Positions 2,667 to 42,100 of a DNA stretch of 64,000 nt are shown here, in pieces. Under the pieces are notes generated by a model. The model did no database searches. It was not told the origin of the DNA and saw only the letters and a list, made by a program, of their open reading frames with translations. The DNA is from a virus. Both the position numbers and the translations under genes were made by a program. How positions within the stretch are numbered: position 1 is the stretch's first letter; each line of letters opens with the position of its first letter. The stretch spans positions 1 through 64,000 of IMG/VR virus record IMGVR_UViG_3300025131_000014. The stretch is one strand, 5' to 3'.

Positions 2667-2944
2667 GTAGATATACTATATATAAGGGCAATTTAGAATT
2701 TGTATATGGATATGATTTTCCATTACAAGAATATTTTTATCAAATATTTGATCACGATATTGATGACGCTGACCAACAGCTAATTGAATGGAAGTCTAAT
2801 AGAACAGACTATATGGCGAGAGACTACTATGCTAAAGGATTAACTTTAGCAGAAATAGCATTGAAGTTTCACCAATTTGGTGTACCGAAAAATGTAGTAG
2901 ACTGTGTATCGTTAGGCATTCCTATTCCAGATAGTAGTTATTAA
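2663..2944 (+). CDS. Hypothetical protein
   Basis: ORF track, TTG start overlapping the upstream stop. Confidence 0.7.
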   Translation: MSRYTIYKGNLEFVYGYDFPLQEYFYQIFDHDIDDADQQLIEWKSNRTDYMARDYYAKGLTLAEIALKFHQFGVPKNVVDCVSLGIPIPDSSY

Positions 2945-2954
2945 AAATTTAACG

Positions 2955-3062
2955 TTTGGATTTGGTTGAAATTCCAAGAGAGAGTCTCATAACCTCTTTC
3001 TAAAATGCACTCATGGAGAAACCTTCACGTGGTGAGTGTGATAGATGCATTTTTATGCATTG
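2955..3062 (+). promoter_or_regulatory. Structured leader upstream of the 179-aa gene
   Basis: AAAATGCA.../...TGCATTTT enclosing CACTCA...TGAGTG, plus an upstream TTGGA/TCCAA hairpin. Confidence 0.4.
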
Positions 3063-3106
3063 ACTAATTCTTCTTTTTATATTTTTTAATTTTTAAATCT
3101 TTAACT

Positions 3107-3646
3107 ATGAATGCAGAATTCGTAAATGAGGGCCAACAAATTAAGTTGGTAGGGATTGCTCTTTCGAGTAATCCAAATGCTACAGTACTTGATGACGAGG
3201 GTACTAACGGTATTAAAGGTCTTGGTGGTAAAATCAATGAGACCAGTGATGGAAGGAAATATTACCTTGCAATTTTTCAAGATTTGGATAATCCGTTCCA
3301 AGCAACTAGATTCAGAGTGATCAGTCAACAATTTGACAGCTCTGGAAATTCTATTTGGAAAGGCGGAGATCCTAGTCAGATCAAAAATTATGTTGGTAAA
3401 GCACTTCCAGGTGCAATTGTAACTAAACAGGTAGAACCTTATCCAGTTACATCACAGGATGGAACAACTAGAACAGTTGATTCATATACTGCGGTTGCAC
3501 TTAAAGGTGAGAACATCGTCCAGTTGTTCAGCAGAGCAGGTCATGAACTAGCGGGAGCTAGTGCTGATACCAGTTCTGAAACATCTACTCCTGATATTGA
3601 GTTAAGCCCTGAAGCTACGGCTGAATTGGGTGCGACTAATATCTAG
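3107..3646 (+). CDS. Hypothetical protein with acidic tail (possible nucleic-acid-binding protein)
   Basis: 179-aa ORF, beta-rich core, acidic low-complexity C-terminus, followed by its own terminator. Confidence 0.8.
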   Translation: MNAEFVNEGQQIKLVGIALSSNPNATVLDDEGTNGIKGLGGKINETSDGRKYYLAIFQDLDNPFQATRFRVISQQFDSSGNSIWKGGDPSQIKNYVGKALPGAIVTKQVEPYPVTSQDGTTRTVDSYTAVALKGENIVQLFSRAGHELAGASADTSSETSTPDIELSPEATAELGATNI

Positions 3647-3662
3647 TAGTTGTTGAGAGATA

Positions 3663-3722
3663 TATAGAGCTAGGTTAGTACTTCGTTACAGTTAAACTAA
3701 CCTAGGCTCTATAATCTTTTTA
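3663..3722 (+). terminator. Intrinsic terminator-like hairpin
   Basis: TATAGAGCTAGGTTAGT...ACTAACCTAGGCTCTATA followed by a T-tract. Confidence 0.7.
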
Positions 3723-3744
3723 TTTTTTAATCTTTAAAACCGAT

Positions 3745-4383
3745 ATGATTATGAAAAAGTGGATAATAGAATTTTTAATATCTCCTGTAGTATTTAGCAT
3801 ATTAGCTACAATATTTATACTATGGGTATTATCATTTACAGCTTGTGGCTGTAAGAAAAGACCTGCTACTCCAATATTAACTTCTACTGTTAAGATGGAT
3901 CAGGCATTAACCTACGCAAAGGAAAATAAAATGGATACTACGGTAGCTATTTTTGTAGATTTTAGTCAACCTGCTTGGATGCAGAGAATGTCATTAGTGG
4001 ACTTACAGGCTAAAACAGTTTTAAGTAAAACTCAAGTTTCTCATGGAATGGGATTAGAGTTTAGTATTAAACCTCGTTTTAGTAATGTAAAAGAAAGTCA
4101 TTTATCTTCATTAGGTAAGTATAAAATAGGTGACAGAGGATGGAGTGTATGGGGTATCAATATAAAATATGTACTTCATGGACTTGAAAGTACTAATGAC
4201 AATGCTTTTGATAGGAATATAGTATTACACTCATGGGAAGTAATTCCTGATAATCAGAGAGTAAGAAAACCTAGGTCTGCTGCTCAAGGTTATGGATGTC
4301 CTGCTGTATCAAATGCATATATGCAGACATTAGATAAAGTATTAAGAGGTAGGAAGAGTGTGCTTTTGTGGATCTATAAATAG
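3745..4383 (+). CDS. Membrane-anchored murein L,D-transpeptidase (YkuD_2-like)
   Basis: N-terminal TM segment; VSHG, FSN...SSLG, LHGLE..NDNA..RNIVLH and catalytic GYGCPAV motifs. Confidence 0.85.
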   Translation: MIMKKWIIEFLISPVVFSILATIFILWVLSFTACGCKKRPATPILTSTVKMDQALTYAKENKMDTTVAIFVDFSQPAWMQRMSLVDLQAKTVLSKTQVSHGMGLEFSIKPRFSNVKESHLSSLGKYKIGDRGWSVWGINIKYVLHGLESTNDNAFDRNIVLHSWEVIPDNQRVRKPRSAAQGYGCPAVSNAYMQTLDKVLRGRKSVLLWIYK

Positions 4384-4438: not shown

Positions 4439-4482
4439 AATTATTTAACATTTTAATTATTTAACATTTTAATTGGTTTAAC
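4437..4482. repeat. 16-bp tandem repeat, ~2.8 copies
   Basis: TTAATTATTTAACATT twice, then degenerate TTAATTGGTTTAACAT running into the ATG at 4483. Confidence 0.7.
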
Positions 4483-4653
4483 ATGAATATGGATTGGACA
4501 TTTTATAATGATAAGGGACAAAATTTTAATGTTTGGATGAATCGTCCTAATGCTGATGTATTACTTGAAGCTTTAAATAAGACAGAAGCAAGGTCTTCAA
4601 ATCAATTTTGGTCACTTGTTACTACTGAGGAATATATAAACAAAATAATATGA
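4483..4653 (+). CDS. Hypothetical protein, 56 aa
   Basis: Open frame MNMDWTFYNDKG...; ATGA overlap with the next gene. Confidence 0.55.
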   Translation: MNMDWTFYNDKGQNFNVWMNRPNADVLLEALNKTEARSSNQFWSLVTTEEYINKII

Positions 4654-24198: not shown

Positions 24199-27100
24199 CT
24201 AGTTTGCCATTTTTGTGTGGGTCATGTAATGGAACTTGTAATACTGGTTTCCTAAAGGAATTAGTTCAAGTGTTTCTTTAAGTAACTTGTTATGACCTTT
24301 TCTTACTCCTGCTTTATATTGTCCTTCTCCCATTAATTGCTGTATTATTGCTTTAGGCATATCTACAAGAATATCTGATAATGTTCCAATAGCAGGAGCT
24401 GGATTTCCTTTTGTCATTTGTAACATAGCATCAGGATTAATAAAGAAGGTTACTTCTGTATTTACTCTAGTGAATGTATTAAGCAGTAAAGTCATTCCCA
24501 TATTCATATAAAGTTGTTCTTCTTCATCTTCATCTTCAAATTCGATTTGTCCTAATAAGAATAAAGCAATGGCTAAAGCTGCTACAAAGTAGATCTCCGC
24601 CATATTTTTTCTCATATTGATTTTATCTACCTCATCAAGATTTTCAAATTCAGAAGCATCTTTTCCTATTAACTGTAGGCCAAACTGTTTAGCCATAAGT
24701 GTTGCAAATCCCATAGCTCCTGATTTTTCAAGAGCTGTTCCATAACTTCTCCAAGTTCCTTTAGTATATCTTTCTAAAGCTTCATCCCATCTCTGGTCTT
24801 CCCATCTATCAAACCATAATTCAGGAACCCAAGATCTGAACTGAAATAACATTCTTCCCAGAACATGTTTTTTACCAAGTATAGGTGATTTTCTGTCATA
24901 GTTACCATGTATTCTTCTAGCTGTTACATCAAATTTCATTTTAAATTTAAGCCATGCGGCACTTCCTTCTTCTGTATCAGAGAATTTATCCCATCCTTCA
25001 TTATTCTGAAGAGGAAATTCTTTAGCATTCCATTCTCCATTTTCATCAAAAGCATCCCATAATGGTTTTTCTTCTCCTTGGTTATTTTTTACTTTATTAA
25101 AGTGCATCATTGCTACTAGTATCTGTCCATATACAAAGAATTCTGATCTTTCCTGTAAGAGATATAACCAATTTCCACTTCTGGAGTCTTCGGATCCATA
25201 CATTGATTCTACTACCTGAGCAAGACCATCAAAGTTTGCCATAAGAGCTCTTACTTTCTTTCCTAGCTGTGTAGGAGCATATTTACCACCATTTATAGTT
25301 GACCCCATCATTGTAGTAAAAGCTTTTCTTGCATTACCAGGTGTGAATTCTGATTTACCTGCGGCATGTCTGAATACTGCAGATGTACCAAATACTAAGT
25401 TAGCTGTAGCTGAAAACCAGTTAAAGCCCATACCAAGAGCTTGTGTATAGGTTATTAATGCATTACCTATACTTTGTCCTGTTACTGGTCTTTGAAAGAA
25501 AGTTTTTAATGCATCTTCATATGCTTCTCTATTTTCATCTGTTATATCAAGCATTGGATCACCCTTCTTATTTGTTTTCCTAAACTTTTCTTCTTTGTTT
25601 AGTTCTGCATAGATGAAACTTTTTACCTTTTTTGGAAGAGGTTTAAGTGAGTTCTTATAGTTATCATAAGCTTCAGTATACGGTATATCATTAGCTAAGT
25701 CTTTTTGAAAGGTTTCAACAGCATCTTTTATTACTTCAAATTGCTGTTTAGCTTCATTTCCCATAAATCCTTTTTGTTTACCTAATATTTTTACAGGAGT
25801 CCCAGGTTCTTTAGTCATTCCATATAGAAGAGCTTCTATTGTATATTGTAGTTGTGCTTTAGCTCTTACGAGTCCTTTTTCTGCCTGCATAAGATCTCCT
25901 TCAGTTCCTTGTTTTTGTTTTTTACCTGATTGAGTTTTAGTCGCTGCTTTAATAGTTCCAAGTAATCTATTAGCTAAAAGAACTTGTGGTTCTACTCTTG
26001 CTTTATGTCTATAATTTGTAGCCATAGCTGCAAAAGCTTTAAGAATCTTACCAAGATCATAACTTTTTTGGTTAGGCATTAAAGTTTCTCCTGTCATCCA
26101 TAAAGGAATAGAAGGCATAGCTTGTCCTGTTGCAGTTTCTATAGTTCCGTATTCTATTTCAGCTTCTACACTATCTGTAAGAAGTGATACCATACTATTA
26201 TTAGCACCTGAAATAATTCCTCGGAGAGCAGAATCACTATATTTTTCTGTGAGATCTTTTACAAGATCAGGAATTCTATTCTTTTTTATATCGCTGTTAT
26301 CTGGAAGATACGCCCAAAACTTTTCCATACTATTTACATAGAAATCATAGAATTCTTTTAGCTCTGGAACTTTCATTACTTCTTCAAACTCTTTGTTCCA
26401 ATGTTTGGCTGCAGGTACTGATGGAACATAGCGACTAGCAAAATTGTATTTAAGGACAGCCCCACTTGGAATTTTTCCTCCTGATGTAAGGCTATTAAAA
26501 AGTTCATTATAGATAAAAGGACTGTTTTGAACATCCCATTTATCTCTAGCTGCTTCATATGCTCTTAGATCAAAATTACCGTCTTTATCTACAGATATTA
26601 CTTTTAAATCTTCTATTATTTCTGTTCTATTTTCAACAAACTTATTGAAAAGAGTTTTTTGTTCTGTTAATAGAGCATCTATCATTTCAGTAGCTACTTC
26701 TCTTCTTTCTTCATTTCCATCTACAAGCTTTTCTATAAGCTGTTCTCTATATTCTTTTCTTTGCTGAGCTGTAGTTGGTGCTTGTTCAATTCCTAAGTCT
26801 GTTTTTCGTGGATCATATATTTCTTTACCATCTATAAGCATACCAATATCGATAGCTACAATATTTTCTTTTTGCCATAGCATATGCTTTTTATAAGCAG
26901 CATTAGAAGGTCCTACTCCTTTTACACTATTGATATGATTTCTTTTTTCCCATAATTTTTGAAAATAAGAACGGTTGATTCTACTAAGTAAATTTCCTGT
27001 AAGTTCTCCATTTTCATCTTTTTGGGCAAGCTTGTCAAATTTTTCTTTTATATTGCCTGGTCCTATATTAAGTTTTTCAATTGCTACGTTTATATCTTTA

Positions 27101-30100
27101 ACATGACCTTCAAATTCATTACTAGCTTTTATAATAGCCTGTTGTAACCATTTATCTACAATTCTTACTATTGGAACTTGAGAAGAGAAAGCACCTCTTG
27201 TTTGAGCTGCAAATGCTCCTGTATCAAACTGAGGTCCAAATATATCTTTCATGGCTAAGTCTAATCCTGCAGATGAATTAACCATTTTTCCTATTATTTC
27301 TCTAGCACCATGTGTCCATCTTGTTTCTAAATCTTGAAGTTGACTAGCAATATCTCCAAAGTTATATCCATGAAATTGTGTTTCTCTGGTTACTCTGTTC
27401 ATAACCCCTTTCCAGGATTTAATTATTTTAATTACTGAGTCAAGTTCAGAAAGATTTCCTCCTTTATGCAAAACTTTATCTGCCCAGTCTAGCTGTTCTT
27501 TTGCTATTTTAAGTGTTTCAACTGAAGTTTGTTCTCGTAAAAGATCATCTCTTTGTTCTTTTATTTTAGCTATTCTTGCTTCTAAAGGAGCAACTGGATC
27601 TTCTCCTTTGTTTTCTAAAGAACTTGCTCTAGTAATACTTCTTTCAAGATTTTTTATTTGATTGTTAAGCGAATTAATAATGATCTGTGTAGCTGAGTCA
27701 AGTTCTCTTTTCTTTTTTCTTTGTTTTTGCGGCATCGCATCAGTACTGTAATCGCCTTCAGGTCTTTCATCAGTTACTACTATAATGTAACCTCTGTTTG
27801 AATCTGGAAATACTTTAGCAGTTACACCAGGATTTTCAGCTTCGATCTGTTCAGCTCGGCTATTTGCTGTTGTAATAAGAGTAAATAGTTTCTTTCCTCC
27901 GTGTCTATTAAGTAAGCCATAGCCTTTTTCTATATTATATAAAGAAAGATTTCTTATAGGAACTTCTTTTGCTTTAGGTTTTTGAGCATAGAATACTTCA
28001 CCTTTTTTAGTAGCTATTCCTATTTTTCCTGTTACTACAATAGGAGTTGCAAGTTTATTAACAGTTCCTTCTTTTATAGCTTTCTTTATAAGTTCATTAG
28101 AATACTTAGGACCTACTCCTTCAATTGTTGATACAGTAATATGAGGATGTTTAACTTTAGATTGTGGATTTTCTATAATAAGTGCCTGACCTTTTTCATC
28201 TTCTACAGTTGCTATTACAGTTAAAGGTATTTCTTGTGTATAAGGTAATGAGTTTATAAGATCTTGATCGGGCATAAATTGAATTGTAGAATGATGCATA
28301 TGAACATTCTTATGTTTTGCTGGAAAAGTTTCTAAGAGAGTCTTATGTACTTTTTTAGAAATAAAGACAGCAGCATAAAGAGCATCTTTTTTAAGTTCTC
28401 CTAATGATATAGGTGCTTCTTTTTTAGGCATATCATCCTTTCCCCAAGCTGCATCTAAGAAATCATCTCCCATCATATTTCCATCGATACCTGCATCTGA
28501 AATAGGATCATCTGCTTTGAGTTCTTTAAAAGGTAATATACCTTGATCTAAATTTTTATATGTAACGTTTTTATTTAGTTCTTTAGTTGCCCATTGCTCT
28601 AAAGTTATAGGGTTTTTTATAGTCTCTCCTGCTTCTCTTTCTCTGTCTAGATATTCTGCCAATACTGCATCCATATAGTCAAAAGCATCACTTACTGCTC
28701 CTACTTCAGGCCATTCCAGTATATCTACTATCTGTTTATTAACAGGTGTTTTATTTGCACGTCCTAGTGAGCTAAAAGTTCTCATATATGTATACATACC
28801 CTCACCGTAAAACTCATCAATATGTGTTAGCAGAGCCTCCCATTCTGTTGGCCATTTTTCTTTAGGTTCTTTATATATAGGTAATGCACTTATAATATTA
28901 CCTACATTCAATTGGAATTTGTTTTTGTTTTCTGCTGCTATTAGTACATACTCTGTTTTTAGAGTAATTTTTTCGCCATACTTGTCTGTTACTTCTATTT
29001 CTTTAGGAAGTCTTTCTTCTATTCTTTGTCCTTCTGCATTTGTATAAGTTTTGTTAAGTAATGTATCTTTTGGAGTAGGATCATAAACAGAATCCCATTC
29101 TTCTGCTCTTTTAGTCATATCCAAATATTTATTCAATCTGGATATTGGTTTTTCTATATCTTCTGAGGATTTATATTTTGGAGCCAATTCTGTATAATGA
29201 ATCCAACTCCCACTTGGTATATAAGCATTTTGGAAATATTCGCCAGGAATAAATTTACCATCATATTCAGTACCTTTTGTTTTAAGATATTCTTCCAATT
29301 TCTTGTTGTCTGAATCAAATTCTTCTTTAAACTTCTTGGCTATTAAGGCATCAATTATAATTCTCCCAACACTAAGGTCTGGTTGTCCTCCAAACTCTTC
29401 AACTATCATTTGAGATGCGCCAGGTGCTGCACGACCAACTCCTTCATCCCATGTCCCTCTATGTTCTATTATTTCCCCTTGTGCCTCATTATTAAATTTA
29501 GCAGCTATAAGAGATTCAATAGACATATCTTTATATTCTTTTAATTTCCCTTTTACATAATCTCCTATAACACGTTCATATTGTACTAAATCTTTATCTT
29601 TTTCATATTTATATTCCTTAATGGTATATTTACCTTTTTTAATCTTAATCTCTTTTTTAGATACTATTTCATCCCATGCTTCGAATTTTAACTGTTTGAT
29701 TATTTCTTCATCTGTTATCTCAATTATTTTACCTTTATCTGCAACTCTTTTACTAGTGCCTGATTTGCTTCTTGTAGCATAATCCAATGCTGTGTCTAAA
29801 TAAGGAGTCAAAGAAACCCCTGTTGTTTTGCCTCCAAAATTATCTTGTGCAAAAATTGTTAAGTCTCCGTTCTTATCTATTTTATATTGAGATTCAAGAG
29901 ATACGCCCCTATATACCTTTTTCTGTTTCTGAGCAATTTCTTTAGGATTCTGATTATATCTTACTTGTTTTTCTTCTTCAGTAATCGCAGGCACTTCTTC
30001 AATATCCCCTTTTTTTATGTTTTCTGTTTTTTTGACTTTAACACCTTTAACCCCACTACTTTGTTGTGTTGGTTGAGTGGATTCTAATTCTTGTTGAGCT

Positions 30101-33100
30101 AATATTAAACCTTCCAAGAATGCTTGGTCTATTAATTGATTTGTGTTATGAGTAAAGCTCTCATACTGCATTAACTTTTTAGCAGCTTCTGAATTAGAGT
30201 TTTGTTTAAAAGACTCAACTACAAGTTGTTTCATTAAACCTAAACTATCTGTTTTTTTCATTTGTGCAACAGTACCTTTACCTCTTATTTTTTTCCCATA
30301 TCCTCCAATCCCAACATATTTGTTATAAGTAGCTTGATCAAAAGTACCAGACTTATTAGATTGATAAGCATGTTCTACACTGCCGTATTCTCTACCTTTC
30401 CAAGTAAACTCTCTTGGAGCTAGATTAGATAAAATTTTGGTAGAATATTCAGACTCAGCTTGTCCCCAGTATACATTAATAGTTCCTTTCTTTTCAACCT
30501 CACTAGTTTGTTGTGCTGGTCCAATATTTAATTTACCAGTATTAAACCATTCTTTACTAAATATAATATTAGAAGGAATAGGTCCAGCAGCATTAAACAT
30601 ATCAATCATTTCTAATCCTGTGTAGCCATTTAAAGATGCTTTAGTAGTATTTCTGTACGCTACTTTAAATTGTTTATTAGGATTAGCTCTGGCAGTCTCA
30701 TATAAAGATTTAATAGATTCTGTAATTTGTTGAGGAGAAATAGATTTAAGACCTTTATTTTCTTTTACTCTTAAATCTTTCGTAGGTAAAGCATAAGCAT
30801 TTCCTTGTAATCCTTCTCCTTGTCCATACTTAGCACCAAATTTATCTTTAGCTTTTTTAGCTGCCCCTGCACCATGCCTACCTTCTGGATTACTTCCAAA
30901 TACAAATATTGTATTTTCTTCAGGAGTTATATCGCCCTCATAATATTGAGCGACCTCTTCTTTTACCTCTATATCACTGTCTTCTGGTACTATTGTAGGG
31001 TCATTAAATCCATATTCTTTATTAAGTCTATCAGCTATAGCTCTTTGGAACTCAATCATTCTTTCTTTAAACTCTTTTTCTCCTCCTTGATATCCAGTGT
31101 CTCTTAAAATGTTATTATATGCCTCAAGTTCTTCTAGAGTAAGTGGAATAGCGTCATAAAACTTTCCTGTTCTTCCTGTACCTCCCACAGCTCCAACACC
31201 TCCGTCTCTTTCAGCTTGGCCATATCGCTCAATTCTTGCTTTTCCGTGTAGTCCTGATCGTAAATTTATTTTTAATTGGTAAGTATTATCCCAAATATTC
31301 TTTATAGTCTTTTCAGGATACGTACCTAAGTAAAGATCAGGAGTTACAACACGATCAACAAATTCACTATCTTCTACAATATCGGCTGCATCCTTATAAA
31401 ATTCTTTTTGGGCTCCTACTAAGTTAAGTGTTTGATTAAGAGCAGCTTCATAAAGACTTTTATCTTCAAATGTTTCAGCTAAAGGATTATCCTTTTTTAA
31501 GGATCCAACTAAGTCAGCAAGTAAGCTTAATAGTTTTTCCCATATATTTTTACCTTCTTCATATCCTTTAGGTATTTTATGGGATAACATAAATGTTCTT
31601 AATCCTTTAGAGGCTGAAATTCCTGCTGTAAATTCATTTACTGGATGATTAATAGAAACAAGAGGGTATATATATGTTGATTCTGCCCATGTTAATGTTT
31701 GATTATTAATAGATTTTTCTTTAACTCTTATAAAGTCTGCTTCAGTAACTCCGTCTTTACCAAATAGCTGGGCCAATGTAACAACTTCTTCTGTTGTATC
31801 CTCACCTTGTAAAACTCGTGTATCTGGTGATGCTGCTATTAGAGCGTCTTTAGTATGTGTAGCTAATTTAATAAGTTGATTAACAATTTTCTTTGTTTCT
31901 GGTGAGGCAATGCCTTTCCTGACTTGATTTATAGCTGCTAAAGTTAAGAAGTGTGTTAATTCATGTATAATAATAGTTTCTTCTAAATATCTTTGATTTT
32001 CAGGAGCAAGTTCACTTGTCCATCCTGTATCTTCTCTTTTAAAACTAACCTCTGCTAGTGTGTATTCTCCTTGGTCATTAAAGCTGCTTCGAAACACTCC
32101 GCTTGATATTGGACCTTTTGTTCCATTAATCTTAATAGTTACTTTAATATTTTGAGGAAGTGTTTCTATAACTTCTTTATAAGCAGTGGCCATTTTTTTA
32201 TGATAGTCACTATTAGAGTTAAATCTAATATCCTCTAACATTTCAATAATTTGTTCTTTTTGATTTTTTATACCTTTGGTTACTTCTGTAATTGAGGGGT
32301 CTTCTGACGGGTCTTTGCCTAAATTATCTCCTACTAACTTTAATCCACTATTGAAAGTATTGGGTGGAGGTATAGTGTTTTCTCCAGAAAGTTCTACTAT
32401 TTCTTCTGGAAGATTTTCTGTATTAAGACTTATTGCTATAGGATCGTTAGGATTGTACTCACTTTCTTGTCTGGTTCCTAATGTGCTTATTCTTCTATAT
32501 ACAGTATATCCTAGAGTACCTTCTTCTTTTTCTTCTCCCATTTTTTCATAAAGTTCCCATCTGTTGGTCTCGTTATTTCTAAAAGAAAGAAAGTGAGCAT
32601 AAAACTTTCCTGGGCCTAAATTACCTAATCCTTCAATTGTTGTTATAAATTTTTCATTTTCTGTAGGAATTTCTCCATCAATACTTTGTCCTGCAGTAGT
32701 ACCTTTAAGTTTTATATACTCTTTTCCTTTTATTTGATTTTTTTTATCAAATGAACTGATTTTTGTAGTTCGGTAAGGTTTATGCTGAAAGTACTGTCTG
32801 GTAAAATTAGTAGGATTTTTATAATAGAAAGGATTTGTTAATGGTTGTCCTAATATAAAAGTATCAAGAAGTGCAACATTAGAAGCTACACTTCTTATTG
32901 CTTCAGGATAACCAAGGTCCATCATTACAGGATATGGAATTAGTCTAAAGAAGTTTCTTGGACTTTGTGTGCCTCCTGTTGCATATGTATATTTTATAAG
33001 GTCATAGGCTAGCTTTTTTAAAGAAACGGTAGCTTCAGCACCATCTGTATAAGGGACTTTTTGATCAGTTTGAGACCATGCAAAGAATTCTCTTACCAGA

Positions 33101-36100
33101 TCAGGCTCCTCTATTTTTTCATTTCCACTTGCCATATATTCAAGACGGGAGGGTGTATTTCCGATATCTTCTGATAAACGAGGGTAAAGTCTTTTTAATA
33201 GTTTACTTCTTTTCCCCCATTCTGTTTGTTGAAGAGCTTTTACTCTTCTGGCTAATGAATTTCTGGCTAAAACTATTGTCGTTTTGCCTTCTTCTTCTTT
33301 TCTTTCTTTTACTTCATCATATAAAAGTCTTTTTCTAAGGTCTTCAAGAGATTCATCAGGAAAGAGCTGGTCAAATACTAGGGAATTTAGGTATTGTTTT
33401 AGATCTGTAAATATTTCTGCTTTTCTATCAATATTCATAGAAGCTATTCCTCCTAATTCTCCTATACTATTAGTAGCTTGCATGAAAACAGGAGATTCAT
33501 AGGGATATAATTCTTTAAATAATTGAGTAGCAAGTACTTCTCCATACATTGCAGATGCTCCTATTAGTCCATTAGGATTGAAAATAAACACATCACCATT
33601 TGGCTGTTGATTTAGTTCTCCTATTATCTGTTCAGTTCCTTTTAGATAGGTTATCCCTTCTCCATCCATAACATCAACTAGTTTTTGTTTTAGCTCTAAT
33701 GCATTTAACATTGTTTTTCCTGGATGTCTTAAAGGTTGGTTAGTATTAGTTACATTTTGGGCGGCTGAAATATCTTCTCCCATTGTTTGGATTACATTTA
33801 ATGCTTCTAGTATCTTTAATTGGTCGTTCCAATAGTTATCTCCTTTATTTTCAGGAGCTGTACCAATCATTTCTTTCATTTCTTTTAAACTAAAAGTATC
33901 ATCAAGATAGTCTTGAGGATAAAGTTTATCTGTGTCTTCTGTTATTTGACCATTTTTTTTGATCATTTCTTTTACTTCATTAAATGCTTCTTCACTAGCT
34001 TTTACCCTGCCCATTATTATATCTTCTGTAACTTTACTTATTTTAGTAGTGTAAGCTTTTACCCACATATGAACTGCCTCTTGATTTGCAAAAGTTCCCA
34101 CATATCTTTCATCAAAGCCTTGAGAAATCATGGCTAAAGCTATTCCAAATGTAGAACCGCTCATATTTAGCTTATGAAGATCCTGATCATTACCATTATC
34201 CATACTGGCAGACTGGAATCCTGATGATACATCATTTTTTGTACCTTTTCTAGATACTAGTTTGACATCGGATACTTTATTTCCTTCATATATTTCTTTA
34301 CCATCATCAGATTTAAACTTTATTTGAAGTGGTACTAAAAGTTTTCTTTTGGAATTTTCAGGATCTGTTATTACTTGCTTAAATTGTGTATCTACTGTTT
34401 GAGCTAATGCAAGATAAGTATTGAATAAAGAGAAAACACCCATTCCAGTTTGTCCGTCTTTGTTAATAAAGAAGAAGTCTCTTTGAGCTTTTGGTGTAAT
34501 AAAGTTAGGTAAAGCTTCATTTTTATTTTTGAGGGCTTCAAGTTCTAATCCTATTTCTCCTATTCTTATTTTTCCTTCATCTAATGGGGTTAATCCTTTT
34601 ATTACTGCTTCAGGAGTTGACATTACTTCATTATAGATCTCTATTACCTGATTTTGAAGGCCTTTCATAGATTCTCGTAGTTCTGCTTCTAACTCATCAA
34701 TATTTTTAATTGCCTCATCTATTGTTTTTCCTTCTTCTTCAGCTTTCTTTCTCTTTTCTTCTTTCTTAATTAAGAGATCTTCAGCATGTTCTTTTGAAGC
34801 ATATTTAACGATTCTACCGTCTTTAGTGACCCATGTCCAGTATTTATAGGTCCTTAGTTTATCTACATCAAAGTCAGATCCCATTTGAGTTACTATCTCA
34901 TCAGGTACTATTGCAAGATCTCCCATATATTCAGGTAAGAATCCCACTATTTCGAAGCCTGCCATACTACTATGACCTTGAAAAGGTATTCTAAATCCAA
35001 ATAGATCAAGAACATCACCACTAACTTTATCGCTATCAAATACTACTTTACCGTTTTCATCTTTTTTAGTATAGTCACTTATTCTTAATATTTTTCCATT
35101 CCCATCTTTAACGGTCCATGGTACTAATATTTGTGCTTTTTGGACTTTATTGTCTTTAGTTAGCATATAATTTAGTCCATCTTCTGGATTATATCCTGGA
35201 GTCCATACAATATCAGATTTATGAGAATTAGAAAGTTCATTAAACCCTCTAACTCCTTTAAAACCTACATTTGATCCTTGTATATAAGCATTTCCAGGTA
35301 AAGTAGATTTAAGTATTTTATTCTTTATAAGAGAAAGAACTAAAGGTTCCATTCTAAAAGATGACATATGAAATCCTAATGGTAATTCAAATTGTGTATA
35401 ACCATCAGTTAATCCTAATGCCATAAGATCATTAAGAGGATACCCTCTATCCATTGCCTCTTCTACTAGTATTTTCCTAAGTTTTCGTAAATCTGTTATT
35501 TGAATTGTTTCTACTTCTTTCCATACATCAGGTTCAACTTCTATTTCCTTTTTTACCTTTACAGCTTTTACTGATGTTAGAAATTCATTATATTTTTTCT
35601 CTAAGATTTTTATTTGGACTTCGCCAAATTTAGTTCGTAAGTAATCAAAGTCAGTACCATTTTTAGATTTTCCAAAAAGGTTTTCAAATAGCATTTTTTG
35701 TCCTTGAGTAGCCTCTCTTATAACTTCTTTAGCTCCCTTATATGGATTTTCTTGTTGTATTTTATAACCAGATCGATCTAGACTTAGAACATTTTTAAAT
35801 TTTAAATCAGAGAGCATATTGCCTTCTTTATCAAATATTGTTTCTACACCTTGGGCTCCTGTTTTTACACCACTTACATATATTAATGCATCACCACCAG
35901 CATCTTCTAACCCTAATAAAACATTTTCTATTTCTAACCCTTCAACTACTTGAGGAACTAAAGGAAAAGCAGATGTTTTTAAGTACATAGTAATAGCTGC
36001 TCTTGTAGTTTGTTCCATTTTAAAACCTGTGTATACAGGTTTAAGAGGTTGTAAAATAACATCTTTCATCTCCATATCAGTGTACTTGGATTTTTCAAGT

Positions 36101-39100
36101 TCACCTCTTGCTTGGGTTTCTGCTGTTTTGTCTCCTGCTTTTTTAGCGGCTATAATTTTTTTAAGAGCCGCTAATTGCTTTTCATACTTGTCAGTAAGTA
36201 CTTGAAAGTCTGTATCAGATATTTTACCATAAGCCATCAAATCTGTCAGATATTCTCCCATTGTTGTTAGCATCTGAGCATCTGTTGATTCAAATCCAGT
36301 ATTAGCTCCATAAGCTTTTCCAAGTTTTTTTGACATTGCTGTCATTTGAGCAAGATTTTTACTTGCTACGTCTCTATCATTTGCTATTACTATATTAAAA
36401 TGATTAGCTCTTCTGTGGTGTACTGAACTATTAATAATAGCTGGATTATGCCAATATCCTTTTGTTCCGCTTGCTCTTACTTCACTTAATCTTTTATTAA
36501 GATTGGCAAATGTATTGATAAGAGTATCTTGGAATGTTCCTTTCTTAGCTTTCTTATAATAAAAAGCAGGATCACCACTCATTACTTGGAACATTTCTTT
36601 ATGAGCAAACATATAATTAACTACATAATCAGCTGCTGCTGCTTTTATCTTACGTCTATTAATTGTATCAACAGTAAATCCTGGAGTATTTGTGTTTCCT
36701 CCAAGTGTTTCTCTGTTATTAAGGCTATTCATATATTTCTCACTAAAACCTGTCATCTCCCATATATATGTGATTTGTCCATTTTTTTCTTTAGAAGTTC
36801 TTTTGAACATACCCATTGTTTGCCAGTCTTTTACTTGTTCATTTATTGCAGCAATAATATTTCTTGCTATAACACTTTTTATACTAGCTTTTTGTTCTTC
36901 TCCTAAAGGGATTATTATATTTCCTTCGCCATCCCAAATAGAAGTGGTTATATCACTTTGATTTTCTTCTAATTGTTCTTTATTAAGAAAAGGAAACATT
37001 ATAAATTTATCTCCTCCATCTTTATAACTGTTAACTTTATTTCTTTCTTTTTCAGAAAGTGTTTGGAAAGACTTTATTCTTAGCATTTCTGCTTCATATA
37101 TGTCATAAAGTGCATCTAAAGCTTCTTCTTCAAGTCCTGCAATTTCTTCTACGTCTTTAACTTCATTCCAGGCTATTTTAACTTGTTTTCTTAATGCATG
37201 GATTATAGGAATAACAGTATGTTCTGATGGGGTCATATATAGATACTTGGCTCTTGTTTGATTTCCATGATTTTGAAATAAACCTATTTTGTATATCTCC
37301 ATTTCTTTTGGAGTCATCTGTTCGAGGGCCGCAGCAGTACCTCTTCTTATACCGTGAGATATCCCATCTGCTATTTCTACTCTGAATGTATTTCTTAAAG
37401 ACTGTCCATTTATATATCTACCTTGTCTTTTATTGTATATATCTGTAATTATCTGTTTTTCTTGTTCATTAAGCCCTGGTGGAAGCATATCAGGAGTTAT
37501 TTTTTCTCCTAATGTTAACCTATTAAAAGCTCCTAGCCATTCTGAATTCCATTGAAAAGCCATTTTAGATAAAGTATTAACATATTGTGCAGCTCTTTCA
37601 ATTTCTTGAGGTTGAGATTCTTTTTCTTTAGGCTCATAAGAATCTGCTAAAAGAAGAACTTTTGCTTGTTCTGTAAATTTAGACAGATCAGAATATTTAT
37701 ATAGAAGCTGATTAGTAACATCTCGTGTTCCTGTACCCATACTGACACCTCCTATTTTAACATCTGCTTTTGCTAATGCACGGATCCTTGCAATCTGTCC
37801 TTCTGTAAGATCTCTAAATGGATTTTTAGACTCAAAACTTATAACAGGTTCTACATTTTTTTTAGCAATCCAATGACTTACTAATTTTACTTTATCTCCT
37901 TTTACTTCTTTAACAGTATATTCTTGTCCTTTATAAAGAACAAGACTTCCTCTTATAACAGTTGGTTTAACAAGTAAAGTTTCAAATAAGTGTTTTATAA
38001 ATCTTCCTTGTCCTCCTGAATGTAATAGTGCTGTAGGGCTATCAATGGTTCCACCTATTTGGTTTAATCGCCCTAAAGTAGTTTTAGGACTCATCACTAA
38101 TTTTAAAGCTGTTTTTGCACTAAGTTCTATACCAAGTAATTGTAAAATTTCTTGTGTTTTAGCAGCTACTTCAATTTGAGCTTTTTGGGCATCATATTCT
38201 TCTCCTTTCTTTTGTCGTAAACTTTGAAGAGCCTCATTAGACAGTCTTACATATTCATCATAAATAGCTTTAGCTTTATCTTTTGATATGTATGCTTTTC
38301 CTCCTATTAGATCTATTAGACCATTTTCTTCCATATTAGAAAGAAGGTTTTGTTGCCATTTCTCTACTAAAAGATTTACATCGTTTTGTGTGTCTCCACT
38401 AAAAGTTAAGATCTTTGATCCCTTATTTGATCCATCTACATTTCTATTAGGAGTAAATTGTGCTACTACCCTAGTTACTTCTGCTTTTGAAGGGAAAGCT
38501 ATTACAAATTGAGATTTTAGTTGATTGGGATTTTTAACATTTTTATCTTTATCTAGATGCATTAAATAATTAACAAGTGCTCCTATTTGAGCATTACCTG
38601 TATCTAATGCATATTCTTTTAGTACTCTTACTATACTATTGAAATCTTCAGGAGTTCCTACTAATATGTTTAATAGGTTATTATAAAGATCTTCATAATT
38701 TACAAAAGTATCTAGTCCTAGATAATTCTTTTCTTTTATATACTTAACCTTACCATTTACTTTTTCTACACCTGTAATTTTAGAGAGTCTTGATAAGATA
38801 AGCCTAATTTGCCAAGGAGCGGTCTTTTTGGAATCTGTACGAAGTTTTGCTTTTGAACTGTAGTTTTCTGTAATTCCGTCCTCTATATAGGTTTCATCTT
38901 TTTCCTCTTGGACCCCTTCTTCTAAATCATAGAGATACTCAACAACTCCACTGTCTTGTATTTTTATTCCAATTCTTCCAAGCTTTTCATTTACTACCTT
39001 TTGTATTGCATCAAAATTATTAATCAAAGCTCTAAACTTTTTAGCTCTTTCTTGATTTGCTTCTATATCTGTTGCACCTGCAACATTTTTAATGAGTTTA

Positions 39101-42100
39101 CTTTGAAATCGGTTTATAATATTTCTTATTCTTATTTCTTTTCGTTTTTTAGTTTCACCAGGTCTTTCTTTTGCTGCTTCTAGTTCTTGTTTCATCCCTT
39201 CAAGGCTGAAGGTTTTTCCATTTTTAAGGCCTTTAACTATTTTTTTATAAAGTCCTTCATCTTCTTTAAGTCTTTGTAAAGCATAATCATATAACTGACT
39301 TGCTTTAATGTTTTTGTTACTATTAGCTAAAGTGTCGTAATGATTTAGTACATAAGCATATACACTATCTGATCCTGCAATAAGTTCATCACCTGTAAGG
39401 TCTTTATTTTTTATTCCTGGTAATAGTTTTTCTATAAGTTCATCTAGTTTTTTTGTAGGTTCTTGCTTTGCAGGCATTTCGTCTACATTTTCTAGACTAT
39501 CTCCCCAAATATCAAGTGGAGTAATATCATCATTACCTTCTATTCCATCAAGTATACCTCCATCGCCACTTTCTTGACCATAGTCATCTTCATCTTCTTC
39601 TTCTTCTTCTTCTTTTGTTTTTTCTAGATCTTCCATGAAGTCTGGTTGTGGCCCAAATAGTTCATTAAGAATATCCTCTTCTACTCCGAGTTCGTCACTT
39701 CTTTCTTGATTAGTTTCTTGTTCTACTACTCCTATTTGTTGATATTCTACAGTTGGTTGATCAAAATAGATCCATTCTTTTGTTCCATCAGATAAGGTTA
39801 CTTCTTCTCCACGGAATTTAGATAAAAGGTTCTTTTTTACAAAGGTTTCATATCCTGTGGTTTCATTATTATTACTTGCTTTTCCTTCTATTGAATCTAT
39901 AACATACTCTCCATTCTCTTTTTGAGTTAATATAGGAACGGTAATATTTTTATCTTCTCCTAATTTCTTATAGTTAACAGCAAATTGACTGTTATTTAAA
40001 GCTTCTACTAGCTTATCTTTCTTTTCATGAAAGTGTTCAAGGCTTAAAAAATTCATTGGTTTTGCCCATACATCTTTAATAGTAAACCTAACAGTTAATA
40101 AATTTCCTTCATTATCTGTTCTTATATGAAATTGTCCATAGCCTGTTTTAGCTCTTTCTCCTCTTTCTGCATTTCCATCTTCTGTTGTAAATGCGTGATC
40201 AACTACATATAACTGAACAAACTCTTTTAAAGCATCAGGACTATTAAGAATATCAATTTGTGTCATTGCTTTTATGCCTTTGACTATTTTTTCATTTTCT
40301 TCTCCAATATTTTCAGCTCCCATATGTCCTGCCAACATGAAAATTTCTATTGCTTTGGCAATAGTATTAGCATAAGCTGTTCCATCTACTGCAACTTTTC
40401 CTTTAGTTATAAGATTTTGTATTTCATTAAGTTGTGGAGCCCGTACATAAGCTGCAAAGCTTTGCTTGTCTTGTGGTGTGGGAAGAACAATATATACTGC
40501 TCCGTTAGCTAAATCTTTTCCATTTTTTACATATTCTAAAGAATTCTGTTCAAAGGGAGATTCTCCTCTCATTAATATTCCATTAACTGATACACCTAGT
40601 TTAGCACTTGGTCCTACTACATCTCCTAATTGGGTTTCTTTATATCTACCTGTATGCTCATCTTTTTTATTAAAGATCAGATGTCCTATTCCTTTCTTAC
40701 GTATTTCAATTTCAACTCCTTCCTTTTTTTCAAAGGCATCGAAAGCAGCATTTCTAAAGTCTTGTAATCTTTTAGTTTGTATGGCCCAATTATCTATATC
40801 TAGTTTACGTCCAGTCCAATTAACTACTCTTCTAAATACAAAGTTTGCTAAGGGCACTCCATTGGAGTCAACTTCTACTTTTAGTTTTCCGTCTTTGAGT
40901 GTATATGCAGTACCTGCATCATGGATATACGCAACAGGTTCTCCATTCTTGTTTTTTATAACAAGAGGAGTTCTCATTCTTATTTCTTCTTCTGTAGGAT
41001 TTTCTTTTGCTTTCCACTCACCAAAGGTCATTTCTTCTCTTTGGCCTTTATCATTTATTATAGTACTGGTAATTGGGACTGAATCTGCTGCGGGATCTAC
41101 TTCTACTGTAAAAGTATCTCCTACTTGAAATCTTGTATGTGATTCAATATCATTATGAAGCGTACTACTCTTCTGATCTCCTGTAGATACTGTTCTAATC
41201 GTTCTAACATCCCCATTATCGTCTACTACTTCTTTAAACTCTCTAGCAAGATAAGCCATAGAAAGAGAACTTACTTTTAAGGTTCCTGTTTGTTCTTGTC
41301 CTGTTTCTGCTTTTGTTAATTGATTTATCTCTTCACTTTCATTAAGGTTATTTGTTTCATGATTATCTATATCTTCTTTTGTCAGATTACCATCTCCAGT
41401 ACTTCCTTTCTCAGCATCTTTATAGTCTGTTTTTTCTTTAGGTGTAAATTTAGGGGTAACATTTGGATTATCTTTAGGATCTGGAGTATTGTCAGCGGCT
41501 GCTTTATTAGTTTTTTGGACTTTATTAGCTGTATCTTTAGCTGTTTGAGCTCCTTCTTTTTTTGCTGATTCAAGTTTTTCTTTTCTTTGTTTTTCCAGGT
41601 ATTTTTCCATGGCACCAGGAACAGTCATTTCATCATATTCTTTTTGAAGTACTTCTATTCCTAATTTCTGTGCTTTAACTAAAGCTTTACCATGTACTAT
41701 CCCTGTATATTCTTCCCCTGTAAGTTGAGCAAATTCTTTAAAGCCTTTCATTGCATCAAGAAGTTGTTTACTTTCTCCTTTTTCCCATCCTTCAGTTTTA
41801 GACTGGAAAATCTTATAGAGTTTATGAACAGCTCCAAGAGATTCAGGATCTAACTCTTTTAATAGAGCATCAGCTTCAACTGGATCTTTTTCAGCTTCTA
41901 GTATTTTTGCGGCATAATTTTTAAATACATCCATTATTACACCAGCATGCTTTTCAGCATTTTCAGTACCTTTATCTATCTTATCTTGGATGTGTTTAAG
42001 AGTTTTAGCTCCTGATTCATTTATACGAAGTCCATGTTTTATTCTAACATCTTTTCTAGCTTTTCCTCCATCTTTACGATATGTAGAACCATCTTCAGAT

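Follow-up and report, generated by a model that had tools for sequence, protein, structure and literature searches.

Predicted NAD/ADP-ribose modules in a fused crAss-type virion RNA polymerase, and a 27-nt joint at which a NADAR cassette is exchanged

The closest described counterparts of the protein studied here are found in phi14:2 and crAss001, which encode the three proteins of their transcription block (phi14:2 gp66/gp65/gp67; crAss001 gp47/gp49/gp50) in separate genes. The structure and function of the phi14:2 virion RNA polymerase are proven in the literature, and the crAss001 orthologues gp47, gp49 and gp50 have been detected in virions by mass spectrometry, where they occur whole, at 155-277 kDa. 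The literature on crAss-like phages has already noted that the three proteins can be fused into a single polyprotein, and that the block contains a zincin-like protease.

A second body of work concerns the polyvalent proteins of Iyer, Burroughs, Anand, de Souza and Aravind 2017 (PMC5512222). These are giant multidomain proteins, coded beside virion genes, that combine several effector enzymes, among which ART, 2H and zincin-like peptidase domains are named; the prediction is that they are packaged, injected and active ahead of phage gene expression. A survey of NAD/ADPr systems (PMC9503650) belongs to the same literature. The concept of an injected toolkit, which an initial annotation put forward for the present locus, is the one already published as the polyvalent-protein model (PMC5512222, PMC9503650). 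The scaffold here is a crAss-type two-barrel virion RNA polymerase, whereas in PMC5512222 the terms 'crAss' and NADAR each occur 0 times.

The fused polyprotein and its polymerase core

The window, by which we mean the whole 64,000-nt stretch of DNA analysed, from a marine crAss-like phage, contains a single giant reading frame with the following features.

24199..44142, minus strand: giant ORF, 6647 aa and uninterrupted, a fused crAss-type virion RNA polymerase polyprotein
34504..36105, minus strand: RNA polymerase core, aa 2680-3213 (phmmer and phrog match)
34861-34875, minus strand: DFDVD motif, aa 3090, in the core
31543..32175, minus strand: candidate zincin-like region, aa 3990-4200 (motif only)
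31951-31965, minus strand: HELTH motif, aa 4060, of the HExxH type

A 4048-aa gene call from another contig (P0002) is 99.95% identical to aa 2600-6647 of the giant ORF, and the genes around the ORF are virion and tail genes. By phmmer the core matches PDB 6VR4 (phi14:2 gp66) with E 1.8e-22, the DFDVD aligning with DFDID, and it matches phrog_16227, a virion structural protein, with E 1.8e-41; the identity first proposed for the protein, a virion RNA polymerase, is borne out. The giant ORF has a homologous core and DFDxD in common with the phi14:2 and crAss001 proteins. However, phi14:2 gp66 has 2180-2194 aa and is without the modules described below, whereas the giant ORF is three times longer and carries four extra enzyme domains.

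A scripted search recovered every motif of the initial annotation at its reported position, all inside the one 6647-aa ORF. Four of the five lie within domains supported by sequence family, predicted fold or the two together, the exception being HELTH. The key residues of those four domains are kept in relatives, and their motifs are more than chance.

At least 10 distinct homologues also have an HExxH, set in comparable hydrophobic sequence 870-1250 aa past the DFDxD, with an EF-type motif downstream of it; family, PDB and phage searches returned no match for the zincin-like region. The zincin had been counted as payload with HExxH as its one basis. Because the literature describes a conserved zincin-like protease in the gp65/gp66/gp67 block, and so places it among the core genes, the region is probably not payload.

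Four modules downstream of the core

The remaining motifs fall in the following domains.

30526..30951, minus strand: A1S_2505-family domain with a macrodomain fold, aa 4398-4539 (NF049995 and AF2 model)
30859-30909, minus strand: IFVFGSNPEGRHGAGAA motif, aa 4412, in the A1S_2505-family domain
30049..30501, minus strand: NADAR domain, aa 4548-4698 (VIA, phrog_1017, SVEHAYQ signature)
30361-30432, minus strand: LSNLAPREF and YGSVEHAYQ, aa 4571 and 4586, in the NADAR domain
29596..29955, minus strand: ADP-ribosyltransferase (ART)-fold domain, aa 4730-4849 (VIA; R4745, S4777-x-T4779, E4821..D4824-E4825)
29668-29916, minus strand: VYRGVS, SLTPY and EAWDE, aa 4743, 4777 and 4821, in the ART-fold domain
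29263..29595, minus strand: helical extension of the ART-fold domain, aa 4850-4960, co-conserved with it
27961..28398, minus strand: 2H phosphoesterase domain, aa 5249-5394 (PF08302; H5284-x-T5286, H5334-x-T5336)
28276-28296 and 28129-28149, minus strand: HHSTIQF and HPHITVS, aa 5283 and 5332, in the 2H domain

The initial annotation had called these domains macro-like, NADAR, ART-like and 2H. When slices were checked by predicted fold, the macro-like, NADAR and ART-fold modules took the folds named for them.

The first module matches NF049995 at 106.5 bits (cut-off 45; E 8e-31) and phrog_2072 at E 8.5e-32; it has no Pfam Macro match. The AF2 model containing it has pLDDT >90 across most of residues 21-160. 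In VIA superpositions of the predicted fold on macrodomains, at rmsd ~3 A over 122-130 residues (Z 9.2-10.6), it reaches Z 10.6 to 2dx6, 10.2-10.4 to TARG1 and 9.2 to the DarG macrodomain. The whole model finds 114 chains at Z >=8, and among the matches listed all are macrodomains or designs built on one, except two NADAR entries. The macro-like assignment is thereby supported. As modelled, the domain has its fold in common with TARG1, the DarG2 macrodomain and viral nsP3 macrodomains; A1S_2505 (NF049995) is nonetheless an uncharacterised family, and catalytic residues of the TARG1/DarG type were not identified in the domain. Judged from the motif, its FGSN..G.HG.GAA loop would be placed like the N..GGG..GA phosphate-binding loop of macrodomains. 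Viral A1S_2505 loci lie in frames of <200 aa in 96 of 120 cases, mostly as free-standing genes.

For the NADAR domain, VIA gives Z 10.1, at rmsd 2.8 for 128 residues, to the NADAR-ADP-ribose structure 8bau and Z 10.0 to YbiA, which supports the assignment. Sequence searches give E 1.4e-6 for phrog_1017, together with E 0.005 for Pfam NADAR and E 0.009 for Phage_30_3, both under cut-off. The domain has the NADAR fold and an EHxxQ-type signature in common with T4 gp30.3 / AdfN (PMC11825919) and the NADAR of DarG1 (PMC11543638). Of these, T4 gp30.3 / AdfN is also phage-encoded and defeats DarTG1 experimentally (PMC11825919); the match to Phage_30_3 is weak. The early protein AdfN is small and stands alone, whereas the NADAR described here is, as judged from sequence, an in-frame cassette of a predicted virion protein.

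The third module adopts a compact ART fold in the VIA comparison of its model, which was built from 4 sequences only (pLDDT 73.9). Eleven Tpt1/KptA entries match at Z 7.3-8.7, with 8.2-8.7 to Tpt1/KptA NAD lobes, the best value being near the level where VIA warns of a common arrangement, and other ARTs match at <=6.2 (Arr 6.2, TreX 6.0, pertussis and cholera toxins 5.0-5.4). Only 4 relatives are known, and R4745, S4777-x-T4779 and E4821..D4824-E4825 do not vary among them. Fold and conserved R, S-x-T and E agree with the ART-like call. The domain has in common with the R-S-E toxins (T4 Alt, cholera, pertussis, scabin) an Arg in strand 1, S-x-T in strand 2 and a Glu opening a later strand, but it carries E-x-x-D-E in place of their canonical [QE]-x-E. 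In predicted shape it is nearest to the Tpt1/KptA NAD lobe. It is, however, without the N-terminal RNA-binding lobe of Tpt1, which holds most of that enzyme's catalytic Arg-His-Arg-Arg tetrad, and a search of the whole genome with PF01885 (Tpt1) gives no match, not even with the threshold relaxed to E<=1. The ART-fold domain matches no sequence family, ART-PolyVal included, unlike homologous giants. Its helical extension is co-conserved with it in P0122, P0123 and L013 and finds only unspecific helical hairpins by VIA. As a separate lead only, the language-model neighbours of the domain are R-S-E toxin clusters at 0.87-0.88.

The 2H domain matches PF08302 (tRNA_lig_CPD) at 25.8 bits, above the cut-off of 23, and has 613 relatives at E<=0.001; among the 150 listed, most match this stretch, have ~140 aa and are free-standing. 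Across a family of 41 sequences the two His never vary and the two Thr hardly do, and 34 of the 41 match PF08302. The 2H call therefore stands, as a domain of the tRNA-ligase CPD/CNPase type: it has two H-x-T motifs and PF08302 in common with tRNA ligase CPD and CNPase, with a short His-to-His spacing of ~50 residues in ~140 aa. Sequence comparison detects no relation to the structures of phage Acb1 or to an annotated PHROG. Since the domain is of the CPD/CNPase type with no link to Acb1, the anti-CBASS role first suggested for it finds no specific support.

A 27-nt joint and cassette exchange

The NADAR module is bracketed by two copies of a short direct repeat.

30494..30520, minus strand: joint copy A, encoding PAQQTSEVE, between the macro-like and NADAR modules (direct repeat D2)
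30047..30073, minus strand: joint copy B, encoding PTQQSSGVK, after NADAR (direct repeat)

The consensus of the joint is CCAACACAACAAACTAGTGAGGTTGAA, 27 nt in frame, encoding PTQQTSEVE. A search that permitted all synonymous codons found a near-identical 27-mer in 23 other viral contigs, to whose joint copy A has one mismatch; among 121 giants the joint peptide has 12 matches, spread over 9 proteins, where 0.1 would be expected. In those viral contigs the joint marks breakpoints of recombination, with mosaic switches in identity exactly there: L149 is 81% identical to L145 to its left and 57% to its right, and 56% identical to L138 to its left and 88% to its right. Furthermore, in one marine metagenome contig, from run X8, positions 30031 and 30528 are connected through a single extra letter. 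The net loss of 495 nt keeps the frame and takes out joint-NADAR-joint, while a second X8 contig retains the cassette; the NADAR-less variant is one low-depth contig with a short side of 46 nt and likeness >=80%. L013 also lacks NADAR at this place: its A1S_2505 domain runs straight into the ART-like unit. At least one module, NADAR, is thus a cassette gained, lost and exchanged by related phages at the 27-nt joint. The joint and the cassette polymorphism are new, and a text search finds them in neither PMC5512222 nor PMC9503650.

The payload as a whole is also variable. Among homologous crAss-type giants, 30 proteins have the A1S module upstream of the core and 53 have it downstream, and homologues carry ART-PolyVal and Kinase-PolyVal (Pfam families from PMC5512222), cpYpsA, PIF1 helicase, 2OG oxygenase and DUF1848. 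Because content and position both vary, the payload is accessory, as had been proposed. Identity in the core is 21-32% (median 25%), as against 48-84% (79%) for A1S_2505 and 34-87% (79%) for NADAR, medians that are biased upward because the matches were selected for similarity to this region. Within the same contig, identical residues use the same codon in 77-78% of cases in the modules and in 52% in the RNAP core. The higher codon sameness of the modules indicates that they were transferred recently.

Delivery and possible roles

On a modest balance of probability, we favour the reading that the giant ORF encodes a polyvalent virion cargo protein, a fused transcription block with a swappable train of NAD/ADP-ribose modules. 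Three proteins that are separate genes in phi14:2 and crAss001 would have fused into one polyprotein, with macro-fold A1S_2505, NADAR, compact ART-fold and CPD-type 2H modules following the core in that order. Homology to the virion cargo of phi14:2 and crAss001 suggests that the giant protein would be loaded into the capsid and ejected along with the DNA, so that its modules would be in the cell before any phage gene expression. The macro-like and NADAR modules may there strip ADP-ribose off nucleic-acid bases or destroy ADP-ribose-derived small molecules, against DarT-type and NAD/ADPr-based immunity; the ART domain may carry out an NAD+-dependent modification of a host or phage target; and the 2H domain may open ADP-ribose 1'',2''-cyclic phosphate or ends that carry a cyclic phosphate. 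All these modules would be free-standing phage genes captured in frame and exchanged between distant phages, partly via recombination at the joint.

The domains might instead form one pathway, the branch of NAD+-dependent RNA-end healing and by-product handling known from tRNA splicing and repair, whose purpose would be to mend, at the very start of infection, tRNAs that host anticodon nucleases have cleaved: a Tpt1/KptA-like ART would move a 2'-phosphate to NAD+, giving ADP-ribose 1'',2''-cyclic phosphate, the 2H would open RNA>p or Appr>p, the macro would remove the 1''-phosphate and NADAR would deal with a further ADPr derivative. The ranking of Tpt1/KptA entries above other ARTs agrees with this, as do the tRNA-ligase cyclic phosphodiesterase as the sole Pfam family of the 2H domain, the literature that names KptA with 2H, Macro and possibly NADAR (PMC9503650), and the succession of A1S_2505 and an ART-like unit again in the divergent L013. 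We nevertheless consider it unlikely. Besides the absent PF01885 match and N-terminal lobe, the invariant ART residues resemble R / S-x-T / E, the resemblance to Tpt1 may reflect only minimal ART folds in both, and the genome, which is 97% complete, has no RNA ligase PF09414, RtcB or AAA_33 kinase; a PF09511 search had no match in the genome, but neither did its control, which makes that one search uninformative. A writer-eraser unit, derived from a toxin-antitoxin-like or self-regulating pair, strikes us as distinctly unlikely. In it the ART would ADP-ribosylate a target such as host RNAP or DNA, in the manner of T4 Alt, an injected ART (PMC5512222), or else the phage's own polymerase, and macro/NADAR would protect or reset, mainly sparing the phage or producer cell rather than erasing host-made marks. 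The macro-like module adjoins the ART in the window and in L013, very divergent proteins (~25% and 35% identical), and in the NADAR-less X8 variant too, and DarTG2 pairs an ART with a macrodomain, as DarTG1 pairs one with NADAR (PMC11543638). However, ART activity is itself a prediction from the model, and since ~100 other giants carry A1S_2505 and NADAR modules but not this ART unit, and A1S_2505 is mostly a free-standing phage gene, the erasers' role would be independent of an ART writer.

Delivery itself would fail if the modules acted late in the producer cell, were cleaved off before packaging, or served as non-catalytic NAD/ADP-ribose sensors that tune the polymerase, which we hold to be very improbable. 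The literature expects fused polyproteins to be cleaved and has proposed SLOG and macro domains as phage sensors, and the presence of the modules in the virion is inferred. In addition, D-x-M-P occurs three times against 0.3 expected, brackets the 2H domain and could mark processing sites; in 120 homologues, however, it is not enriched (7 seen against 24 expected). Cleavage is compatible with co-packaging, the crAss001 orthologues are present whole in virions, and the catalytic-type residues of the 2H, NADAR and ART domains are conserved.

Polyprotein and genomic setting

The IMG/VR virus record that contains the window is 90,316 bp long and is judged 97% complete, and the sequencing runs that hold the window sequence are marine metagenomes. 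One open reading frame, running on the minus strand from 44142 down to 24199, encodes 6647 amino acids; every motif listed in the initial annotation was found in this frame, each at its coordinates. When the slice aa 2500-3900 is compared with the PDB, it matches 6VR4, the virion RNA polymerase gp66 of phage phi14:2 (E 1.8e-22, aligned over aa 2680-3213), and the DFDVD of the window aligns with the DFDID of 6VR4, that is, with the DFDxD metal-binding motif of the two-barrel core. The core stretch also matches a PHROG of virion structural proteins. Genes for virion structure and tail fibres lie beside the giant frame on the same strand, and a family-A DNA polymerase and a helicase are encoded on the opposite arm of the genome. 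On the basis of these core matches and gene neighbours, we assign the phage to the crAss-like group, with its transcription-block proteins predicted to be fused into a single polyprotein. The phi14:2 paper already mentions fused block polyproteins, as well as a zincin-like protease in gp65 orthologues, and mass spectrometry places the three orthologous proteins of crAss001 among the virion cargo. By analogy with these orthologues in phi14:2 and crAss001, the protein of the window would be packaged and ejected with the DNA.

The features of the frame analysed below are as follows.

aa 3900-4380, minus strand: region of the HELTH motif, candidate zincin
aa 4398-4539, minus strand: A1S_2505 domain, macro-like
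30493-30520, minus strand: joint copy A, encoding PAQQTSEVE
aa 4548-4698, minus strand: NADAR/YbiA-like domain
30046-30073, minus strand: joint copy B, encoding PTQQSSGVK
aa 4719-4970, minus strand: unit with a predicted ADP-ribosyltransferase (ART) fold
aa 5249-5394, minus strand: 2H phosphoesterase-like domain

Folds and families of the downstream modules

The macro-like domain is a full-length member of the NCBIfam family A1S_2505 (NF049995; 106.5 bits against a cut-off of 45), and it also matches phrog_2072. Its AlphaFold2 model, for which the input was an 85-sequence alignment of viral loci collected by motif, exceeds a pLDDT of 90 in most of this domain. The model matches 2dx6 (Z 10.6), TARG1 (10.2-10.4) and the macrodomain of DarG (9.2), with an rmsd of 2.9-3.7 over 122-130 residues, as well as alphavirus macrodomains (9.9); 114 chains reach Z 8 or more over the whole model. 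The modelled domain thus has the three-layer alpha/beta/alpha macrodomain fold, and ADP-ribose binding or hydrolysis is putative. The term 'macro-like' used in the initial annotation was right at the level of the fold, despite the lack of any Pfam match to the slice at E<=10, Macro included. A SLOG/YpsA-type Rossmannoid, which was our initial guess from the literature, was dropped because the fold matches are macrodomains. A motif scan of viral contigs gave at least 120 matches; all 120 of those listed are genuine A1S_2505 domains, 96 of them in frames shorter than 200 aa and 14 in giant ones. A hitherto uncharacterised family, present in at least 120 viral contigs, gains a predicted fold and a testable activity.

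One relative lies in a human-gut phage, cr112_1 of the Steigviridae (NC_055881.1, 2084-2518). Its A1S_2505 domain is 70% identical to that of the window and occupies aa 67-211 of a 'putative RNA polymerase', and the domain is absent from the annotation of the record. Among the A1S_2505 or NADAR stretches from viral contigs, 7 of 91 (loci L099, L100, L133, L119, L121, L112 and L038) contain an in-frame stop under table 11. Stop-codon recoding occurs in some crAss-like phages, and these stops could reflect either such recoding or broken genes.

The next module had been called NADAR from its motifs, and its model agrees: it matches 8bau, a Phytophthora NADAR-ADP-ribose complex, at Z 10.1 (19% identity, 128 residues, rmsd 2.8) and YbiA at Z 10.0. 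The sequence matches of the slice are weak but concordant. Pfam NADAR (PF08719) scores 17.6 bits against a cut-off of 35.1 (E 0.005), TIGR02464 (E 4.5e-4) and Phage_30_3 (E 0.009) likewise fall below their cut-offs, and phrog_1017 matches too. We take the modelled domain to be of the NADAR/YbiA fold. Single-sequence PDB searches with the macro-like, NADAR and 2H slices returned nothing useful. In two homologous giant proteins, P0003 (aa 3982-4272) and P0118 (aa 4284-4569), a complete second domain interrupts NADAR, namely A1S_2505 in P0003 and an unrelated domain of about 135 aa in P0118; the point of insertion corresponds to a low-confidence loop of the window's NADAR model (aa ~4609-4624).

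For the unit that follows, only four relatives are detectable: the giant proteins P0122, P0123 and P0264, and the locus L013. In an alignment of four sequences (the window protein, P0122, P0123 and L013, with P0264 left out), R4745, S4777-x-T4779, E4821, D4824 and E4825 are invariant; R4745, S4777-x-T4779 and E4825 fall on the expected strands of the model, whereas the -2 position carries no [QE]. The model has a pLDDT of 73.9 and is built on only these four sequences. Over its residues 16-135 every fold match is an ADP-ribosyltransferase: eleven NAD lobes of Tpt1/KptA (Z 7.3-8.7), then Arr (6.2), TreX (6.0) and the pertussis and cholera toxins (5.0-5.4). The unit is therefore predicted to carry an ART fold, as had been suggested from its motifs, with the caveat that the alignment holds four sequences and the best Z is near 8; its activity is putative. 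Its neighbours by language model, which we treat as a lead only, are R-S-E toxin clusters. The unit is not a Tpt1/KptA, since PF01885 has no match in the genome at E<=1 and the N-terminal RNA-binding lobe is missing; the part of the model ahead of the ART lobe amounts to just two short helices in about 28 residues. The slice matches no Pfam family at E<=10, ART-PolyVal (PF18760) included, a family that is present in the homologous giant P0027. A word-indexed search gave no shorter homologues. Searches of contigs gave no match among viral ones and one among metagenome ones; a profile of the unit found nothing in the PDB, and no Pfam domain was detected in P0122, P0123 or L013. A short conserved motif, LAG[FL]RTRTTR...VGD.I.H, adjoins ART-like or NADAR modules in unrelated giants (P0123, aa ~180-260; P0118, aa ~4455-4490), and may be another small mobile domain.

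The last module matches PF08302, the tRNA-ligase cyclic phosphodiesterase family, at 25.8 bits against a cut-off of 23, as do 34 of 41 relatives. Both histidines of H5284-x-T5286 and H5334-x-T5336 are invariant in the 41 sequences. The family is large: the searched slice is matched by 613 representatives at E<=0.001, and of the best 150 of the 613 the majority align to the 2H stretch and are free-standing proteins of about 140 aa. By sequence, then, the domain belongs to the 2H phosphoesterase superfamily, with putative catalysis. The initial annotation had also linked it to Acb1 and anti-CBASS activity, and for this part we find no support: a profile of the 41 relatives retrieved only weak tRNA-ligase and CNPase entries from the PDB, none of the matches listed is Acb1, and the domain matches none of the annotated PHROGs. 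Among partner domains of the 2H relatives there is only one HD domain.

The HELTH region had been counted as part of the same payload. The HExxH motif is present, and it recurs in a similar context, 870-1250 aa after DFDxD, in at least 10 distinct homologues; in a larger group of homologues HExxH lies ~1700 aa before DFDxD. The EF-type motif downstream of HExxH is clear in the homologues and weak in the window (EADF). No family in Pfam, NCBIfam or PHROGs matches aa 3900-4380, nor is there a PDB match by sequence, a shorter homologue, a phage match by tblastn or a phmmer match among 120 giants. Given the recurrence of HExxH in homologues and the zincin-like protease mentioned in the phi14:2 paper, the region is probably a core component of the block rather than payload, and the zincin is a candidate at the level of the motif.

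Exchange of modules and the joint

A search confined to aa 3950-5470 returned 201 giant proteins of 3.6-7.3 thousand residues. By local BLAST these giants share with the window the polymerase core and, separately, the A1S_2505 module, with the NADAR module in fewer of them. Core identity to the window is 21-32% (median 25%), as against 48-84% for A1S_2505 and 34-87% for NADAR (median 79% each). All these medians are inflated because the hits were chosen by similarity to the module region; the discordance between modules and core is real. In 30 proteins the A1S module precedes the core, and in 53 it follows it. At identical residues, the window shares 77-78% of codons with the loci L095 and L001 in the modules, and 52% with L095 in the polymerase core, which points to recent transfer of the modules rather than only strong constraint.

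The initial annotation had proposed a comparison of domain content across homologous polymerases, and in about 120 homologues both the Pfam content and the positions of the modules vary. Other giants carry ART-PolyVal, Kinase-PolyVal, cpYpsA, a PIF1-type helicase, a 2OG oxygenase, DUF1848, HD and RNase H. Since A1S_2505 genes are mostly free-standing and the content of the giants is variable, we read the modules as stand-alone phage genes that were taken up in frame, and their carrier as a polyvalent protein as defined by Iyer et al. 2017 (PMC5512222). Like the proteins described there, the frame combines at least two unrelated enzymatic domains (macro-fold, NADAR, ART-fold and 2H) with the RNA polymerase, lies beside virion and tail genes, and varies in domain content among relatives. 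The polyvalent concept is published; fusions of these modules to crAss-type polymerases are nowhere described in the searchable literature, as judged from searches of partial coverage on crAss with NADAR or ADP-ribose.

The NADAR module is flanked by a 28-nt direct repeat, whose two copies are 447 nt apart and identical at 24 of 28 positions. The peptide pattern P[TA]QQ[TS]SEVE has 12 matches, spread over 9 of 121 giants, where 0.1 are expected; it lies where A1S_2505 ends and on either side of NADAR. A DNA pattern that allows all synonymous codons for this joint is matched in 23 viral contigs, always within giant frames, and the polymerase core is near many of these loci. The joint DNA in viral contigs is a near-invariant 27-mer, CCAACACAACAAACTAGTGAGGTTGAA, encoding PTQQTSEVE; in all 23 contigs Pro is encoded by CCA, the first Thr by ACA and Ser by AGT. 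The sequences on either side vary from contig to contig, and partners switch exactly at the joint. For example, locus L149 resembles L145 more closely to the left of the joint (81% identity, against 57% to the right) and L138 more closely to the right (88%, against 56% to the left).

One contig of the marine run X8 joins 30031 to 30528 with one extra letter, a net change of -495 nt in frame that removes joint, NADAR and joint together; another X8 contig keeps the cassette. The variant without NADAR is a single low-depth contig, and its exact junction sequence has no match in the viral contigs searched. The same arrangement occurs at the divergent metagenome locus L013 (Ga0080013_1000238, 2500-3762), where A1S_2505 (phrog_2072, aa 834-989 of the frame) is followed directly by an ART-like unit, 35% identical to that of the window, with no NADAR in between; this adjacency suggests that the pairing of macro and ART domains is old. 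From the X8 contig, L013 and the flanking joints, we conclude that NADAR is a cassette inserted between an older macro-ART pair, with the X8 support needing confirmation.

Loose contig ends cluster near module borders (28378/28395, 29143-29178, 29915/29948 and 30517), and these are only suggestive because all runs consist of low-depth contigs; uncovered bins in runs X5, X6 and X8 do not count as absence. Another junction in an X8 contig skips 45 nt in frame (15 codons; window 30005-30051) in a Lys/Val-rich linker after joint copy B, which we read, weakly, as variation in linker length, the short side being only 26 nt.

It is conceivable, although we would put it somewhat below an even chance, that the joint is a dedicated plug-and-play recombination handle by which crAss-like phages with ~25%-identical polymerases swap ready-made injected effector domains, such that the polymerase serves as a modular carrier whose payload tracks local host defences. 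The same tentative estimate covers, as part of that reading as a whole, a NADAR cassette that is bracketed by joints and polymorphic in the sea.

Possible roles of the modules

crAss-like phages are among the most abundant gut viruses and are common in the sea, and to our knowledge almost nothing is known of how they handle host immunity. The best-supported reading of the modules is polyvalent virion cargo, with ejection extrapolated from homologues. If so, ejection itself would place the ADP-ribose erasers (macro-fold and NADAR), the ART writer and the CPD-type 2H enzyme inside the cell. A virion polymerase that enters with the DNA and carries such erasers, a writer and a cyclic phosphodiesterase would arm the phage, before its first transcript, against defences that use NAD or ADP-ribose (DarTG and others) and possibly against those that cleave RNA. 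A phage NADAR, AdfN of T4, is proven to defeat DarTG1 (PMC11825919), and the two types of DarG are NADAR and macrodomains (PMC11543638).

The main rival holds that ART, 2H, macro and NADAR act in one pathway, the KptA-2H-Macro branch of RNA repair. That branch is named in the literature (PMC9503650), and both the Tpt1-like shape of the ART domain and the 2H match to tRNA-ligase-CPD favour it; against it, neither the sequence nor the architecture of the ART domain is that of a Tpt1, and a search of the 97%-complete genome for RNA_ligase, AAA_33, PTS_2-RNA and RtcB found no RNA ligase, RtcB or kinase. It is also possible that writer and erasers form a self-protection unit, or that the modules are not delivered or act as sensors. 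The polyvalent-cargo reading is made testable by the conserved joint and the cassette polymorphism, which supply exact module borders for cloning and natural variants with and without the cassette for comparison. Together they suggest a general route by which phages shuffle injected effectors.

Some observations concern the remainder of the polyprotein. The N-terminal ~600 aa (aa ~50-650, window 42190-44000) are common to about a dozen giants at 25-29% identity. For the next ~1500 aa (aa 650-2200) no relative or family was detected, and a long acidic run, EEEEEEDEDD, lies at about aa 1500. The motif D-x-M-P-x-K follows an acidic run at each of its three copies, at aa 1554 (39472-39483), 5236 (28426-28437) and 5468 (27730-27741); D-x-M-P is seen 3 times where 0.3 are expected (p about 0.003), and the 2H module lies between two of the copies. 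The idea of a conserved processing site was dropped because 120 homologues contain fewer copies than chance predicts (7, against 24 expected); a role in processing, if there is one, would be lineage-specific. The C-terminal ~1180 aa (aa 5462-6638, window 24229-27759) are kept in the C-termini of other giants, with 23% identity to P0014 over the full stretch and shorter matches to P0038 and P0116; a hydrophobic segment followed by an acidic run lies near aa 6520-6560. Within the fused block, this C-terminal stretch may represent the gp67/gp50-type part.
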